DNA from: Deltaproteobacteria bacterium
GTDB taxonomy: Bacteria; Myxococcota_A; UBA9160; SMWR01
Direction of reading: 5' to 3'
Length of the DNA stretch: 39,258 nucleotides
Assembly (NCBI GenBank): GCA_032128375.1
Contig: JAQBGU010000003.1
Location: 1 to 39,258, forward strand
Position numbers: made by a program. Shown in pieces: positions 27,001-33,000 of this stretch (position 1 is its first letter; the number at the start of each line of letters is the position of its first letter).

Positions 27001-30000
27001 GGATCGACTGCTGTGTTTCGTGCCAGTGTTCGGGGGTCAGGTTCGAGGCGTGATCATTGATCGACCAGAAGTCGAGCCCCGCGCAATAGCGCGCGAAATC
27101 GCAGGCATCGGCCGGCGGGTGTGCGCCGGTGCCGCCGAAGATCGGCAGGCTGGACGCGAACGCATCGGTCGAAAAAGTCGTGTGGACGTGCAGGTCGCCG
27201 AACAAGATCTGGCGCCCCCGCGGCACGCCCAGCGCAGCGGCGCGGGCACCGCGCGCAGCTTCGCGGCCGAATACGATGCCATTGGGAATGGCCTCGCCGC
27301 GAATCTCGCCGGGACCTTCGTGCTCACCGAGCAGGCCCCAGGAGATCTGGTACAGCATCCACAACGCGACGGCTGCGAACGCGACTGCTGCCAGCGCGAG
27401 TCGTTTCAACGCCAGCGCGGTAGCCAACGAGTCGCGAGGTGCGCGCCCGCCAGTGCGGACACGCCGCCCAAGGTGTCGAGAAGCACATCGGACGTCGCGC
27501 CCATCCGATCAGACGATTGGGCTTGTCGCCATTCGTCGACAGCGGCCACGGCCACCACGACCGCCACGCTCGAGAGCGCACTGCTCCATCTCGACCAGCC
27601 ATAGCTCAAGCGCCAGGCGCGAATACACAACAGGGCGAGGATCCCGTACTCGACGACGTGCGCTGCCTTGCGGATTGCGAACTGGACCGAACTGAGCCAG
27701 TCGGCGCTGGACTCGGGGAACAACCAGTGCAGTAGCGGGCCCAGCAAGCGCGAGGTCTCGCTGTTGGAAAAATGGTCGCCTCCAAGCGACTGAATCATTG
27801 TGATCCACAGCGCGACGCATAGCCACGCAACGCCGCGCGAGGTGGGGGGGGCCGCAGGGAGGGGCGCCGAAGATTTTCGCGCCTGTTGCGGCAATTCGAC
27901 GGACCCCATCGCGGCGCAGCATAGCCGACGCCGATCGCCTCGATGGCGGGGTATCCTGTCGCGTTGATGACACAGCTCTCCATCGGACTCGTCTACGACT
28001 TGCTCGGCTCTTACCCTCGGCAGCGGGCAGATCCTCCCGATGTCGATGCGGAATATGAGCCTGAGGAGACGGTTTGCGCACTCGAGGCCGCGATTCGATG
28101 GCTCGGCCACAAGCCGGTGCGAATCGGCAACCCGGATGCGCTGTTGGCCCGCATCGGCAAAGGCGATTTGCCCGCACTCGATGCTGCGCTGAACATTGCC
28201 GAAGGGCGCGGCGGACGGAACCGTGAGGCGTGGGCGCCGGTCCTGTTGGAGATGGCGGGCATTCCGACGCTCGGTTCCGATGCGCTGACTCTGTCGCTGA
28301 CGCTCGACAAGGCCTGGGCGTTGACGCTGGTCGCAGAGGCCGGCGTTCCGGTCCCAATGCGCTGCGTGCTCGAATCCTCGAACCAGGCAAAAAACGTTGT
28401 ACTACCGGGGCCGTTTCCGCTGTTTGTGAAACCGAGATGGGAAGGAACTGCCAAAGGCATCAGGCGGGCCTCGAAGGTCGCGGATCGCGACGAGCTGGCG
28501 CGTGAGGTCGGGCGTATTCGCGAAACCTACAACCAGCCTGCGCTGGTCGAAGAGTTTCTGCCGGGTGCCGAGTACACGGTAACCGTCGTTGGGAACGACC
28601 CACCGCGTGCGCTGCCGGTGATTCAGCGCGCGCTGGACGCGGCGACCGGAATCGGGATTCACGCGATCGACGCGGAAGCACCGCCCGAGGGATTCCGTGC
28701 GGTCGTGCCGGGCGAGCTGACTGCGACGCTCGAAGCCAGCCTTGCCGAGCTCGCGGTGCGCGCTTATTCAGCGCTGGATTGCGTGGACTTCGCGCGCGCT
28801 GACTTCAAGTTGGACCGCTGCGGTGAAGTGAGATTTCTCGAAATGAATCCGCTTCCGACCTTCGCACCCGACGGTACGTTCGGTGTCCTCGCCGAACTCG
28901 AGGGTCGCCCGCTCGAGGCACTGCTCGGCGAAGTCATTGCGGCGGCGCTGGTGCGTCTTGGACTTGAAGGGGAAGGATTTCACAGGGAAGGATTTGACGG
29001 GGAAGGATTTCACGAGAAAGGGTTTCACAGGGAAGGATTGCGCGGGAAGGGGTCGCGATGGGCAGGGCTTCGAGCTGAGCACGTCGCGGCGGACCCTGCG
29101 CCGGCAGCGGCTGCAATGAGTGCGGCCGGGACAGGCAGCGATGAACGCGACTGGGGTTGGCAGATGCGCAACCGCATCCGCACGGCGAACGATCTGGAGC
29201 GCTACGTCCGGACGACGCCCGATGAGCGGCACGCCATCGATGCGCTGGCCGACCGCTTCCATTTCGTGATCACGCCCTACTACGCATCGCTGATGGACCC
29301 GGACGACCCGGAATGCCCGATTCGCAAGCAAGTCGTGCCGCGCAGCGCGGAACTCGACGACCCGGTCGGGTGGGATCCACTCGATGAAGTCGAGCACTCG
29401 CCGGTCAAGAACGTGATTCGGGTCTACCCCGATCGCATTGCATTCTGTGTGAACAACGAATGCGCGCTGTACTGCCGCTTTTGCCTGCGCAAGCGCATGG
29501 TCGGCGAACCGGACTGGACGATGAAAAAGCGCGAGCTGAGCAGCGCGCTCGACTGGATCCGCAGAACACCGGAAATCCGCGATGTGTTGTTGACCGGCGG
29601 TGATCCGCTGGTGTTTTCGGACGACCGCCTCGAATGGTTGCTCAGCGAGCTGCGCGCGATTCCCCACGTCGAGATCATCCGGCTCGGCACGCGCTTGCCG
29701 GTCACGCTCCCCTACCGCGTAACAGATGAGTTGTGTCGCATGCTCGAACGCTTCCATCCGATCTGGGTCAACACCCACTTCAACCATCCCAAGGAACTCA
29801 CCGAACAGGCGGCAGAGGCCTGCGATCGCTTGACGCGAGCCGGTATCCCGGTCGGCAACCAGAGCGTGCTGATGCGCGGCATCAACGACAGCGTCGAGGT
29901 GATGAAGGAACTCTGCGAAGGACTCGTGCGATTGCGGGTCCGGCCGTATTACTGCTACCAGGCGCAGATGCTCGAGGGCACCGGCCATTTTCGCGTGCCG

Positions 30001-33000
30001 ATCGAACGCGGACTCGAGATCTTTCGCTCACTGCGCGGTCGTACCAGCGGTTTTGCGATCCCGCTGTTCGTGCTCGATACGCCGTACGGAAAGGTCCCTG
30101 TCACCTATCCTTACTATCGCGGCCGGGAGGGCGACGAGGTCGTCGTCGAGAGCTTCGACGGCAGAATCTGGCGCGAGCCCAACTCACTCGATGATGGCCC
30201 GTCGTGAGCGATGCATCGGAGCAAGAGCGATCGACCGGTCTTGCCGCCGCCGCGGTGCTGCTGGCGCTCAGTGCGGCGCTGTCTCGGTTACTCGGCTTGG
30301 TTCGCGAGCGAGTCATCGCACACCAAATCGGTGCCACCCAGCAGGCCGACGCTTATGGCGCGGCGTTCCTGATCCCCGACATCCTGAACTATTTCCTGGC
30401 TGGGGGCGCGCTGGCAATCGCGTTCATTCCGCTTTACTCGAGCGTGCGTGCGCGGTCCGGCGACGCGGCCGCCGGGGCTTTGTTCGCCAGCGTATTCGGG
30501 ACGATGAGTGCTGGCGCTGTGGTTGCGACCGCGATCCTCTGGTGGCAGGCGGAGCCGTTGGTGGGGGTTTTCTTCGCAGGTTTCGACCCCGACACACAGC
30601 TGATGACGGTGCGGCTGGTGCGGATCCTGCTCCCCGCGCAGATCTTCTTCGTAGCAGGGGGGATCTTGCGCGCGGTCTTGATGGCACGAGGCCGGTTCGC
30701 GAGCCAGGCGCTCGGACCGCTGATCTACAACGTCGGGATCATCTTGGCGGGGGGCATGTGGGGATCCCGCTTTGGCGCCGAGGCGTTTGCATGGGGTGCA
30801 TTGGCGGGCGCGGCGGTGGGTCCATTCGCGATTCCGATGCTCGAGGTCTGGCGCGACCCAGAGCTGCGCCCGCGCGTTCGCATCGCGCCGCTCGACCCCA
30901 TGCTGCTGCGTTACTTGGCGATGGCTGCACCCATCATGCTCGGCGTCAGCCTACTCACGGTAGACGAGTGGTACGACAAGTATTTCGGCGCCGGCCTCGC
31001 GGAGGGAACGGTCGCATACCTCGGCTACGGACGCAGGTTGGCCCAGGTACCCGTGGGTGTGATCGGGCAGGCCGTTGCGACGGCGGCCCTTCCCACGCTG
31101 TCGCGGCTGTGGGCGGCCGGCGATCGCGAGCAGCTCGATCGGATCTTGTCGACGACGCTTCGCACTGGCTTGGGGCTCGGGGTTCTGTGTGCGGCCGGAT
31201 TGTTTGCGTTTGCGCACCCGGTCGTCGTAGTGATCATGGAGACGGGTCGATTCGGCGCCGCCGACAGTGACCGGGTAGCGGGGCTGGTGGCGATCTTTGC
31301 GGTAGCTGTCCCCGCGTGGATCGTGCAACAGATTGCGGTGCGCGCCTTCTATGCGCGAGGTCAGATGTGGTTCCCGATGTTTCTGGGGACCGGGATCGCG
31401 CTGGCGTTCATTCCGCTGTATGTGGTGCTCGGGACCGACGCTGAGGGGCTCGCTAGCGCAGGCGCGATCGGTATGACGACGAGTGCACTGGCCACGCTGG
31501 GGTTGGCGCGCGTGCGTCACGGTGGGCCGCCGCTCGAGCCGATCGCTTCGAGTGCTGCGAGATCACTGCTCATCGCGGGTGTTGCGGCGGCGGTCGGCGC
31601 ATGGGCGGGTGGATGGTTCGAAAGCGCACTGGCGACGCTGGCATCCGGTGGCGCGGTCTTCGCGCTGGTGTGCGCGCTCGGGGTGTGGTCGATCGGCGAC
31701 GGGCCGTTGCGCGAAGCATTGTTGCGAGCGGCAAAGCGCGTCACCGGGCGCTCCGGATGAACCCCCGATGAGCTGGGAGTTCTGGATCGATCGGGGCGGG
31801 ACGTTTACGGACTGCATCGGGCGCGACCCCGATGGCGCTCTGCATGTGTGCAAGCTGCTGTCTTCGGACACGGCGCCGGTCGAGGGAATTCGCGCGATTT
31901 TGCGGAGGGCAGGCGTACTCGAACCGGACGCAGCGGTTGCTCCCTGCCGCGTGCGCCTGGGAACGACCGTGGCGACCAACGCGCTGCTGGAGCGGCGCGG
32001 GGCGCCTACGCTGCTCGTTGCGAGCGAGGGGCTCGGCGATGTGCTCGAGATCGGCACCCAACAGCGACCCGAGTTGTTCGCGCTCGCGATCGCGAAGCCG
32101 GCACCGCTACACCGCCAAGTGATCGAGGTCGCGGGTCGCGTCGACGTTGCCGGCGAGCGCCGAACGCCGTTCGACGCCGCTGCAACGCGGGAGGCGCTGG
32201 TTGGCGCGAAACGGGACGGCATCGATTCGGTCGCGGTGAATCTGATCCACGCATACGCGTTTGCGGACGACGAGATCGCGATTCGCAAAATTGCCGATGC
32301 ACTCGGCTTTGGTTACGTGAGTCTCTCGCATCAGGTGGCGCGTGAGATGGGGTTTTTGGCAAGAGGTGAGACAACATGTGTTGACGCCTACTTGACGCCA
32401 CTTTTGAGAATTCACGTGAAGGAATTGAGCGCAGCGCTGCCCGGCTCCGATCTGCGCTTCATGCAGTCTTCTGGCGGGCTGACCGACGCCGCACGCTTCA
32501 AGGGTCCCACAGCACTGCTTTCCGGGCCGGCCGGCGGGGTCGTGGGGGCGGCCAAGGTGGCGGCAGCCGCGGGTTTCGACCGCGCGATCGGCTTCGATAT
32601 GGGAGGGACGTCGACTGACGTTTCGCTGTTGCGCCGTGGCCAGCTCGAACGCTCGTTCGAAACACTGATCGGTGGCGTGCGGGTCAAGGCTCCGATGCTG
32701 CGTGTGCACACGGTGGCGGCCGGAGGCGGATCGCTGTGTCGCTTCGATGGAATCCGGTTGCTGGTGGGGCCACACAGCGCGTCGGCCCGGCCCGGTCCGC
32801 TGTGTTATGGCCAACCCGACGCGCGCGAACTGACGCTGACCGACTGCAACTTCGCGCTGGGACGGATCCAGCCCGATCGATTTCCGTTCCCGTTGGTTTC
32901 AGAGCCAGTCGAAGCGGCGCTATCGACGATGGTCGCGAAGTTGGCGGCTGAAGGTCACGAACTCGACCGCGATGCTGTGGCGGCCGGTTTTTTGGAAGTG

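Follow-up and report, generated by a model that had tools for sequence, protein, structure and literature searches.

A precedent for the products of KamA-family aminomutases serving as osmolyte precursors is provided by the ablA and eam osmoprotectant genes, as described in part of one report (PMC9337991). The solved structures matched by the two enzymes studied here are the lysine 2,3-aminomutase (LAM) of Clostridium subterminale (PDB code 2A5H) and the ligases of the Ddl and Van type. In the 39,258-nt stretch of DNA that we analysed (the window; assembly GCA_032128375.1, contig JAQBGU010000003.1), which derives from an uncultured marine myxobacterium (Deltaproteobacteria bacterium, UBA9160 order, SMWR01), both enzymes are encoded by a single gene. 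The pairing of a predicted β-amino-acid-forming enzyme with an ATP-driven ligase recurs in many bacteria, and we propose, with a probability of about 0.6, that the fused protein is a bifunctional two-step synthase of an amide-linked β-amino-acid compound. Alignments indicate that both domains retain their catalytic machinery, which supports a joint enzyme.

Table 1. Features of the fused-gene locus (positions within the window)
Feature	Position	Strand	Basis
vanZ-like membrane protein gene	27406..27909	-	Pfam VanZ 4.3e-10; NCBIfam vanZ_1 2.6e-15
Fused gene, 754 aa: Ddl-like ATP-grasp ligase, linker, KamA-family 2,3-aminomutase	27943..30207	+	
Ligase domain, residues 1-342, three-domain Ddl fold	27943..28968	+	
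Low-complexity linker, residues about 343-399	28969..29139	+	
KamA-family radical-SAM/PLP aminomutase domain, residues 400-754	29140..30207	+	
murJ, lipid II flippase family	30204..31760	+	Pfam MurJ 1.1e-66; TIGR01695
Fused hydantoinase A/B gene	31780..35637	+	Pfam Hydant_A_N, Hydantoinase_A, Hydantoinase_B
tRNA-Lys(CTT)	35647..35722	+	ARAGORN and Rfam

As the genome-wide survey's note had described, the fused frame is open throughout, with the Pfam domains of both enzymes in one frame, and it is flanked by a divergent vanZ-like gene upstream and by murJ, whose GTG start overlaps the TGA stop of the fusion. The vanZ frame is open to 28110 and relatives align only from ~27810 downward; read from the sequence, the ATG at 27909 is its likely start. 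The murJ product passes TIGR01695 (237.1 bits, cut-off 235.55). It had been called the only MurJ-type flippase of the genome, which holds for strong matches (one, of 225.9 bits), while six partial MOP matches of 22.7-52.6 bits are also present. The hydantoinase A/B gene belongs to an oxoprolinase/caprolactamase-like family of ATP-dependent lactamases, its best NCBIfam match being caprolactamase alpha with 321 bits, far under the cut-off of 1000. It probably lies in the same transcription unit as the fusion and murJ, and is a candidate for a role in the system. The tRNA-Lys gene starts 10 nt past it and is a marker of a syntenic housekeeping block, not counted among the system's parts.

Tandem Repeats Finder identified a 15-nt repeat in the linker (28970-29050; 5.5 copies as assembled) that encodes EGFH-type pentapeptides. 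Contigs from four public runs end within this repeat, and its copy number is to be read as assembled only. The linker differs in a 95-99% identical strain and in a second fused genome of the same genus (G109), and linkers of other fused genomes have no sequence relation to it. A frame error of the assembly does not account for the fusion, since the repeat unit equals five codons and G109 is fused too. End-to-end matches interrupted by one in-frame stop codon were found in three genomes (G061, G018 and G086), and by two stops in another (G116). The fusion is best explained by read-through of the stop codon of the ligase gene, a recent event in two genera; elsewhere the enzymes are encoded by two adjacent genes.

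The fused protein is matched in 144 of the 151 genomes of the order at E<=1e-20, and in 134 of these 151 the best match reaches E<=1e-87. The two halves are adjacent in all 20 order loci fetched, and the claim that they are separate but neighbouring genes in the rest of the order holds for most of it. Full-length fusions of the same domain order do recur, although the number given previously, about 35, compares with 26 among the 120 matches listed; these are scattered over at least four positions in the tree, and in three further proteins the order is reversed, with KamA preceding the ligase. Of 80 genome loci, 51 have a Ddl-like gene next to KamA, including Rhodothermales/Bacteroidota, Nitrospirota and Planctomycetota, and metagenome loci with this pairing comprise 5 with a Q/D pocket in the aminomutase and 33 with a D/D pocket. 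Carriers of the pair include the cultured halophile Longimonas halophila and organisms from soil surveys, and DNA of the window itself occurs in marine sediment metagenomes. Functional coupling of aminomutase and ligase is thus well supported. Because the genes are adjacent in several phyla and fused in both domain orders, it is very probable that the two enzymes catalyse successive steps. The same observations, which extend to both KamA pocket types, make it highly improbable that the enzymes share no pathway, the aminomutase being catabolic or producing a free β-amino acid and its association with the ligase being incidental; lysine-fermentation genes are also absent from the 39,258-nt window. 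That reading can draw on the 29/80 genome loci with KamA and no Ddl-like gene in the examined surrounding DNA, which include the Spirochaetia genomes checked (three of them with only a canonical-level Ddl match), and on Rokubacteria, in which ligase and KamA are both present, unlinked. The KamA-only loci, Spirochaetia included, do indicate that the aminomutase can work without this ligase.

The C-terminal half contains Pfam Radical_SAM (505-653) and LAM_C (696-747) and aligns to residues 15-363 of the C. subterminale LAM chain (E 2e-118). The CxxxCxxC motif (C507, C511, C514) is present, as are R516 (LAM R134), K717 (K337) and D712 (D330). The pocket, in contrast, is changed to Q675 (D293 in LAM), A500 (L118) and T551 (S169), and the zinc site is missing, with S650 in place of C268 and the C-terminal cysteine cluster gone. 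The NCBIfam equivalogs for Glu-, Lys- and Arg-2,3-aminomutases score about equally, all under their cut-offs; the AblA equivalog is missed by 441.5 versus 525.4. In the tree the aminomutase falls into a separate clade of its own (SH-aLRT 97). A column survey found position 293 to be acidic in all lysine-acting comparators, and by this survey the Q675/A500/T551 pocket appears unlike that of any characterised aminomutase, so that the identity of the β-amino acid is uncertain. The label of a full lysine 2,3-aminomutase given to this half therefore stands for the KamA family but is not established for the lysine substrate. The genome holds one KamA homologue only.

The ligase half matches Pfam Dala_Dala_lig_C at residues 143-332 (2.2e-24), and a search against solved Ddl and VanA chains gave a best E of 1e-20, with weaker values for the others. 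The AF2 model of this domain (pLDDT 91.7) has a complete three-domain Ddl fold, and a Foldseek search returned TM values of 0.66-0.72 over ~330-380 columns, the top matches all being Ddl/Van ligases. The Pfam Dala_Dala_lig_N match is indeed absent, as noted before; however, the N domain is there in the modelled fold, and its failure to match thus reflects sequence divergence only. Residues were assigned by aligning the domain with DdlB of E. coli and with the Ddl found elsewhere in this genome, together with invariant columns. By this alignment the ligase keeps every ATP/Mg catalytic and transition-state residue: E37, K123, K163, E203, E210, R285, D287, E300 and N302, corresponding to DdlB E15, K97, K144, E180, E187, R255, D257, E270 and N272. 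Changed positions are H63 of DdlB, here E87 and a glutamate in 19/19 aligned Ddl-like sequences, and S150, here T169, and conservation is lost at the omega-loop K215/Y216 and at S281/L282 of the second D-alanine (D-Ala2) site. With the latter two features lost, the enzyme is not a Ddl. A housekeeping Ddl identity was rejected on this ground and on two others: curated Ddl cut-offs are missed (104.9 versus 243), and a canonical ddl lies elsewhere in the genome, as had been reported, on contig C50 and with H63, K215, Y216 and S281 in place.

The fold and the closest solved relatives, Ddl and Van ligases, together with the adjacent vanZ and the coexisting canonical Ddl, could also suggest that the ligase makes D-Ala-X, X being the β-amino acid, which MurF would add to the stem peptide, with vanZ following the same resistance-type logic. 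We consider this very unlikely: the residues that hold the second-substrate carboxylate (S281, L282) and the omega-loop pair are those that are lost, H63 is replaced, VanH-, VanX- and VanT-like genes are absent from the cluster, and annotated neighbours in 12 loci outside the order include no VanZ match. Near-universal presence in a Gram-negative order would also be ill-fitting for an accessory resistance trait.

Equally slim are the chances of a substitute for EpmB/EpmA, in which the protein would β-aminoacylate a conserved lysine of EF-P or of another protein. No EpmA match in the genome reaches the cut-off (best 47.5 versus 286.9 bits), its sole KamA homologue is the one described here, and its EF-P has a KPGKG loop; ATP-grasp enzymes that modify proteins exist, RimK being one. 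However, efp lies on another contig and is not found among the annotated neighbours of the surveyed loci, E. coli EpmB keeps the Asp at position 293 that this clade has exchanged, and the ligase is Ddl-like rather than RimK-like.

The gene neighbourhood bears on a role in the cell envelope, which the genome-wide survey's note had considered probable. The β-amino acid would be ligated to a UDP-MurNAc-peptide, to lipid II or to some other lipid-linked intermediate, where it would form a side chain, a bridge or a substituent on a carboxyl group, before MurJ flips the product. The logic resembles that of an Enterococcus faecium operon that pairs an amino-acid racemase with an ATP-grasp D-aspartate ligase. 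In the order, murJ follows KamA in 18/20 loci, and it remains the sole MurJ in three genomes (G022, G059, G036) despite only ~30% identity to the MurJ of this locus. A divergent vanZ homologue is present upstream in 14/20 loci (directly adjacent in 12), the near-universal occurrence of the pair is what a core function would lead one to expect, and loss of the small D-Ala2 site would suit a large acceptor. Hints from elsewhere are a ligase orthologue that, in 2/2 Rokubacteria genomes, immediately follows a second murB passing NF010478, LPG_synthase_C directly downstream in two loci (L122, L179) and bacA nearby in a third (L080).

Against this, the whole block from cstA, through an acyl-CoA ligase gene, to tRNA-Lys, tRNA-Leu and tig is syntenic in the order (a hydantoinase A/B gene is downstream in 13/20 loci, and tRNA-Lys follows murJ or that gene in 18/20), and the murJ adjacency is therefore not specific; in one genome (G121) murJ is located elsewhere. 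The order's arrangement accounts for 34 of the 51 genome loci with Ddl-like gene and KamA, and murJ adjacency is confined to these: it is seen in 0/17 of the others, the Rhodothermales, Nitrospirota and Planctomycetota loci among them. The earlier caveat of housekeeping synteny was thus borne out. Among Rokubacteria the arrangement is limited to a narrow lineage, the ligase being found in 0/60 other genomes of that phylum, and the second murB, 27-29% identical to the myxobacterial gene, is not derived from it. Related KamA and Ddl-like modules stand under sigma-54 activators, and their companions are GNAT or methyltransferase genes rather than wall genes; a literature search gave, among the papers listed and judged by title, none tying β-lysine to peptidoglycan structure. 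On balance we regard the envelope role as unlikely, if still a serious alternative.

For the two-step synthase that we favour, the C-terminal domain, equipped with a [4Fe-4S] cluster and using SAM as well as PLP, would take an L-amino acid and shift its α-amino group to C3. This substrate probably carries a cationic or polar group at its distal end, with lysine as the leading candidate. The N-terminal ATP-grasp domain would then phosphorylate a carboxylate, most simply that of the new β-amino acid, which may be bound by E37 together with E87, a residue specific to this clade, and the resulting acyl phosphate would pass its acyl group to a nucleophile other than free D-alanine, giving an amide-linked, or possibly ester-linked, β-amino-acid compound. 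Of the proposal that the pair makes β-lysine and ligates it to a partner, the coupling of aminomutase and ligase is retained, while the glutamine at the Asp293 position leaves lysine a candidate substrate only. As for its destination, we tentatively lean towards a small soluble product, either an amide or a dipeptide, for instance a metabolite of the compatible-solute type, at somewhat less than even odds. An envelope precursor appears doubtful, and other destinations share what is left. Against the soluble product, no conserved transporter or osmoregulator was found beside the pair, and part of the carriers were sampled in soil.

Compared with C. subterminale LAM, 345 residues align (the first-pass identity figure was 48%), and the shared cysteine motif, Arg134, PLP lysine Lys337 and Asp330 lead us to expect the same radical SAM/PLP 1,2-amino shift. 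The present enzyme differs from LAM in the three pocket exchanges, in a Gly-rich loop before the PLP lysine that is two residues shorter, in the absent Zn ligand Cys268 and C-terminal cysteines, in its fusion to a ligase and in its separate clade. With DdlB, VanA and VanG the ligase has in common the three-domain fold and all ATP/Mg and transition-state residues, but not the second-substrate site, the omega-loop Lys-Tyr or His63, and it scores far below their cut-offs. In ablA-type osmoprotectant operons, a KamA-family enzyme makes a β-amino acid that the next enzyme acylates or conjugates; that partner is a GNAT, whereas here it is an ATP-grasp ligase and the cluster contains no GNAT. The pboF and pboG genes of the Pbo biosynthetic cluster in Pseudomonas syringae pv. 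phaseolicola are likewise immediate neighbours, one for a LAM-like radical SAM protein and the other for an ATP-grasp ligase, although, going by the description in part of PMC8473136, that ligase is L-amino-acid-ligase-like and belongs to a 16-gene secondary-metabolite island. In uncharacterised metagenome cassettes of KamA, Ddl-like ligase(s) and GNAT, the same two enzyme families are adjacent and sometimes fused; most of these cassettes combine the canonical D/D pocket with two ligases and a GNAT, and a sigma-54 activator is often present too, whereas the present system combines one ligase with a Q/D pocket and has no GNAT.

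The genome-wide survey's note had described a single gene that joins a Ddl-family ligase to a KamA-type aminomutase domain, and this description was borne out: in a window of ~64% G+C, the frame is open throughout and both halves have Pfam matches (Dala_Dala_lig_C at residues 143-332, Radical_SAM at 505-653 and LAM_C at 696-747). The repeat unit in the linker between the two domains equals five codons, so that an error in copy number could neither create nor destroy the fusion frame. In four public DNA runs both domains are represented by contigs, which break inside the linker repeat, and the linker differs in a strain that is 95-99% identical to the window. 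Within the order UBA9160, fused frames were found only in the studied genome (G000) and a second genome of its genus (G109), and in two genomes of one other genus (G097 and G060); the linkers of these four have unrelated sequences. Three genomes (G061, G018 and G086) have one frame with one stop between the halves, and another (G116) has two stops. In most genomes of the order the ligase ends directly after a conserved RLGL motif, and KamA starts 38-115 nt further on in another frame. The fusion is genuine but young. Prediction of a complex with the halves as separate chains scored 0.00 in two runs without controls, which speaks neither for nor against binding. A promoter and terminator scan of 27000-36500 gave counts no higher than in shuffled sequences, a search of the window with Rfam returned only the two tRNAs and no leader RNA upstream of the fusion, and the sequencing runs listed as holding window DNA include no RNA runs.

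Features of the fusion gene and its surroundings in the window
Feature	Position	Strand	Remarks
vanZ-family gene	ORF to 28110; likely ATG start 27909		upstream of and divergent from the fusion; relatives align only below ~27810
fusion ORF	27943-30207	+	open for 754 codons
linker	residues about 343-399		low-complexity junction between the domains
15-nt tandem repeat	28970-29050		5.5 copies; codes for EGFH-type pentapeptides repeated in the linker
murJ	GTG start overlaps the TGA of the fusion (30204-30207)		downstream of the fusion
fused hydantoinase A/B (hydAB)	from about 31780		after murJ; best NCBIfam match caprolactamase alpha, 321 bits vs cut-off 1000
tRNA-Lys(CTT)	35647-35722		starts 10 nt past the hydantoinase stop
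tRNA-Leu(TAG)	37415-37501		

The N-terminal 366 residues matched 37 solved sequences (E-values of 2e-20 and weaker), all of them Ddl or Van ligases except two pyruvate carboxylases. An AF2 model of residues 1-346, computed with 24 homologues, has a mean pLDDT of 91.7 and a pTM of 0.90, and its top Foldseek matches are all Ddl, with TM-scores of 0.66-0.72 over ~330-380 columns and 20-26% identity. The three-domain Ddl fold of the model indicates that the N-terminal Ddl domain is there but has diverged too far for the Pfam model to match it; the confident prediction and the full-length Foldseek matches thus answer the caveat that the ligase lacks a Dala_Dala_lig_N match. The ligase was aligned with E. 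coli DdlB and the canonical Ddl of its own genome as references. The ATP/Mg and catalytic residues K97, K144, E180, E187, R255, D257, E270 and N272 of DdlB are kept as K123, K163, E203, E210, R285, D287, E300 and N302. We take the D-Ala sites of Ddl to be the triad E15/S150/Y216, K215 and the pair S281/L282, which presumably binds the second D-alanine. E15 is kept as E37 and S150 is replaced by Thr, while K215/Y216 align to Glu/Ala and S281/L282 to Gly/Thr. In place of DdlB H63, each of the 19 aligned Ddl-like sequences has Glu (E87 in the fusion), and this column is also invariant in the alignment of 24 sequences. Loss of the omega-loop K215/Y216 and of S281/L282 extends over a group of myxobacterial, Rhodothermales and Rokubacteria ligases; a second group, made up of fused proteins labelled Chloroflexota and 'bacterium' and a Nitrospirota gene, keeps G276/S281 and K215 and lacks Y216. 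The curated Ddl cut-offs are missed widely (NF002378, 104.9 against 243; TIGR01205, 89.7 against 245.65). The canonical ddl reported elsewhere in the genome is indeed present, on contig C50, with the canonical residue set. Judged from these residues, the ligase half is an active-looking enzyme that is probably not a Ddl.

The C-terminal 366 residues align to chain residues 15-363 of Clostridium subterminale lysine 2,3-aminomutase (LAM, PDB code 2A5H; E = 2e-118), the sole solved relative found. The radical SAM CxxxCxxC motif is kept (C507/C511/C514, equivalent to C125/C129/C132 of LAM), as are K717 (Lys337, presumably the PLP-binding lysine), R516 (Arg134, which we take to bind the alpha-carboxylate) and D712 (Asp330). 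Asp293, which together with Asp330 is assumed to hold the epsilon-ammonium group of lysine, is replaced by Q675. The structural zinc site, presumably formed in LAM by Cys268 and C-terminal cysteines, is not conserved, as Cys268 aligns to Ser650 and the fusion ends ~11 residues past the last aligned LAM residue, 363. Among the window and its 120 best database relatives, the columns of Asp293 and Asp330 read Q/D in 75 rows, including all 26 full-length ligase-KamA fusions, and D/D in 40, which are those that their sources name lysine 2,3-aminomutase; K/N, presumably the glutamate 2,3-aminomutase pattern, occurs in one row. E. coli EpmB, annotated as lysine-acting, has D/E. Q/D and D/D rows are further split by L118A, S169T, S347G, Y365E and E367N and by the deletion of two residues from the glycine loop preceding the PLP lysine. 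A quick IQ-TREE analysis of 55 rows unites the 36 of the Q/D type in a single clade (SH-aLRT 97), to which neither the D/D rows nor the K/N row belong.

Three NCBIfam aminomutase equivalogs score the fusion almost equally, and all are missed: the lysine AblA type TIGR03820 (441.5 against 525.4), the glutamate type (441.8 against 650) and the arginine type (416 against 600). TIGR00238, which models the KamA subfamily as a whole, is the only one passed (334.9 against 199.2). The survey's description of a full lysine 2,3-aminomutase KamA therefore stands for the family and for the cluster and PLP residues, but not for the pocket aspartate, the zinc cysteine or the equivalog assignment. Lysine would still be the simplest guess for the substrate, since Asp330 is retained and D/D enzymes, too, are partnered by this ligase family. 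A literature search on Asp293 and Asp330 of LAM found nothing relevant. According to a review, changes of an active-site aspartate (D331G, D339H) in the Bacillus subtilis or Porphyromonas gingivalis enzyme, perhaps not at the Asp293 column, gave alanine 2,3-aminomutase activity (PMC9850924), which shows that active-site aspartates control the choice of substrate.

In the rest of the order the two halves were said to be separate but adjacent genes, and in a sample of 20 loci (L039-L058) from 20 genomes of eight families KamA directly follows the ligase gene in every one. Matches to the fusion at E ≤ 1e-20 occur in 144 of 151 genomes of the order; the best reaches E ≤ 1e-87 in 134, and the remaining genomes comprise 10 with only weak Ddl-level matches and 7 with none. 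Across 201 genomes sampled from the whole phylum, KamA-half matches of at least 70% identity are confined to the order, and KamA homologues of other families reach at most 53%. Scanning a single genome of each species gave 545 relatives of the Q/D aminomutase. In 51 of the best 80 of these loci a Ddl-like gene adjoins KamA, 34 with the myxobacterial murJ arrangement and 17 without murJ, the latter including Rhodothermales/Bacteroidota (among them cultured Longimonas halophila, strain KCTC 42399, at locus L116), one Nitrospirota MAG and one Planctomycetota MAG. KamA is alone in the DNA examined at the other 29; in three Spirochaetia genomes the only Ddl match is of canonical level (29-32% identity), and two Rokubacteria genomes have an orthologous ligase (62-65% identity) on a contig other than that of KamA. 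Among 80 metagenome loci found via the second ligase group, 45 have a single Ddl-like gene or two of them beside KamA, which is D/D in 33, D/? in one, Q/D in 5 and too short for typing in 6. The reverse fusion, with KamA (D/D) ahead of the ligase, is seen in three database proteins, and ligase-KamA fusion occurs at no fewer than four places of a quick IQ-TREE tree. Sequential action of the two enzymes is favoured by their adjacency in different phyla, by fusions of either order and by the four or more places of the tree at which fusion occurs.

The fetched loci also hold other neighbours. Eight metagenome contigs (L184, L185, L193, L195, L204, L225, L236 and L239) share one recurrent order of sigma-54 activator, small response regulator, KamA (D/D), Ddl-like ligase and PUA-domain SAM methyltransferase, with another Ddl-like gene ~4 kb upstream. 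The cluster of a Planctomycetota MAG (L080, 2253-9083) comprises genes for an 819-aa fusion resembling glycine C-acetyltransferase, a Ddl-like ligase, a GNAT protein of 406 aa, a formyltransferase and a Q/D KamA; bacA is found two genes beyond it. Stand-alone LPG_synthase_C genes (aminoacyl-phosphatidylglycerol synthase-like) directly follow the Ddl-like-KamA(Q/D) pair at L122 (9150-10151) and L179 (7083-8105), and an LPG_synthase_TM gene lies near tandem Ddl-like ligases in a Rokubacteria genome (L166, 3288-4763). In the Rokubacteria genomes G153 and G154 (L148, 5018-8011; L149, 5528-7939), a second, longer murB lies directly 5' of the ligase orthologue, each genome having a normal 327-aa-frame murB elsewhere; their KamA orthologue (83% identity, tblastn) is unlinked to the ligase and adjoins an EamA transporter. 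Co-transfer of murB and ligase into Rokubacteria was considered and rejected, the second murB being 27-29% identical to the MurB of the window's genome, as was a wide spread of the arrangement in that phylum, where the ligase is present in none of 60 other genomes.

murJ narrowly passes TIGR01695 (237.1 against 235.55). As the survey had it, it overlaps the stop of the fusion and is the only MurJ-type gene found: it is the sole strong match (225.9 bits) in a 91%-complete genome, in which six others (22.7-52.6 bits) are partial MOP matches. At three loci of the order (L043, L053 and L055, of G022, G059 and G036) the product of the murJ that follows KamA shares only 29-32% identity with the window's MurJ, yet it reaches 307-309 bits on TIGR01695 and no other MurJ occurs in these genomes, so that two MurJ lineages occupy one slot within the order. 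The syntenic block of the order runs cstA, acyl-CoA ligase gene, vanZ, the pair, murJ, hydAB, tRNA-Lys, tRNA-Leu and tig, and at 18 of the 20 loci tRNA-Lys(CTT), tRNA-Leu(TAG) and tig follow in succession behind murJ or hydAB. In the window a 795-aa DUF3604 protein (25040-27427, minus strand) is encoded between the acyl-CoA ligase gene and vanZ; tblastn found an 83% identical fragment at the same-genus locus L090 and none at the other fetched loci of the order. Upstream of the cluster, at 15508-18897, lie consecutive genes for a CotH-kinase-like protein, a GT4 glycosyltransferase and a weakly matching spermidine-synthase-like methyltransferase.

The survey's note had the pair make beta-lysine for ligation to a carboxylate partner, probably for the cell envelope. 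We regard an envelope destination as unlikely, although several neighbours point to it: murJ stands behind KamA at 18 of the 20 loci of the order, as the sole MurJ of its genome even where it is only ~30% identical to the window's copy; vanZ is upstream at 14 of the 20; and, further afield, bacA, the LPG_synthase_C genes and, in both Rokubacteria genomes, a second murB passing NF010478 adjoin or lie near members of the pair. However, the whole block is syntenic, so that adjacency to murJ is no more specific than adjacency to tig, and murJ is linked at no locus outside the order. The Rokubacteria genes nest within the myxobacterial clade (SH-aLRT 99) and represent a narrow lineage, and their murB neighbour is unrelated to myxobacterial MurB. 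Related modules elsewhere adjoin sigma-54 activators, GNATs or the PUA-methyltransferase instead, and these look like regulated small-molecule synthesis.

We therefore prefer, at somewhat less than even odds (about 0.45), that the pair makes a soluble amide or dipeptide. Window DNA was found in marine sediment metagenome runs, and at a locus labelled Rhodothermus trkH/trkA lie two genes downstream. The KamA-family ablA and eam are recognised bacterial osmoprotectant routes (PMC9337991). Beside the Rhodothermales pair, the search for an exporter led to a downstream ORF whose product is membrane-anchored and belongs to no known family. A more far-reaching version of the envelope proposal, which we consider improbable, is that the Q/D aminomutase acts on a substrate other than lysine and that the ligase attaches the resulting beta-amino acid to a precursor, either of peptidoglycan or lipid-linked, which MurJ then flips. 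Attractive candidates would then have a zwitterionic or neutral far end, such as diaminopimelate, ornithine, citrulline or glutamine; if so, a wall chemotype with a radical-SAM-made beta-amino acid would extend across an order of marine Myxococcota and, by transfer, to a few other lineages.

Whatever its destination, the product would come from a distinct KamA clade that is coupled time and again, in some cases by fusion, to a ligase of Ddl fold which, by its sequence, could not be a Ddl. The pairing points to undescribed amide-linked beta-amino-acid compounds in many uncultured bacteria and at least one cultured halophile. Identifying the product would give a function to a widespread pair misleadingly annotated as 'lysine 2,3-aminomutase' and 'D-alanine--D-alanine ligase', and would define what the Asp293-to-Gln pocket selects; if it enters the cell wall, new peptidoglycan chemistry would follow.

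KamA-family enzymes serve in lysine fermentation, in the synthesis of beta-lysine and beta-glutamate osmolytes, in EF-P modification and in the supply of antibiotic building blocks. The AblA/AblB osmolyte operon has an adjacent GNAT-type beta-lysine acetyltransferase, whereas no GNAT is found among the 16 large ORFs annotated in the window (15508-39256). That the pair modifies EF-P is a long shot: the genome has no EpmA (best GenX score 47.5 against a cut-off of 286.9) and its EF-P carries a KPGKG loop, but efp lies on contig C55, unlinked to the pair, and the aminomutase pocket differs from that of EpmB. Among the papers searched, none describes a KamA and Ddl-like ligase pair or fusion. The nearest published arrangement is that of adjacent LAM-like and ATP-grasp genes, listed in a table for the Pseudomonas syringae Pbo cluster (PMC8473136). 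Neither enzyme family is new; the novelty lies in their pairing, their fusion and the Q/D pocket.
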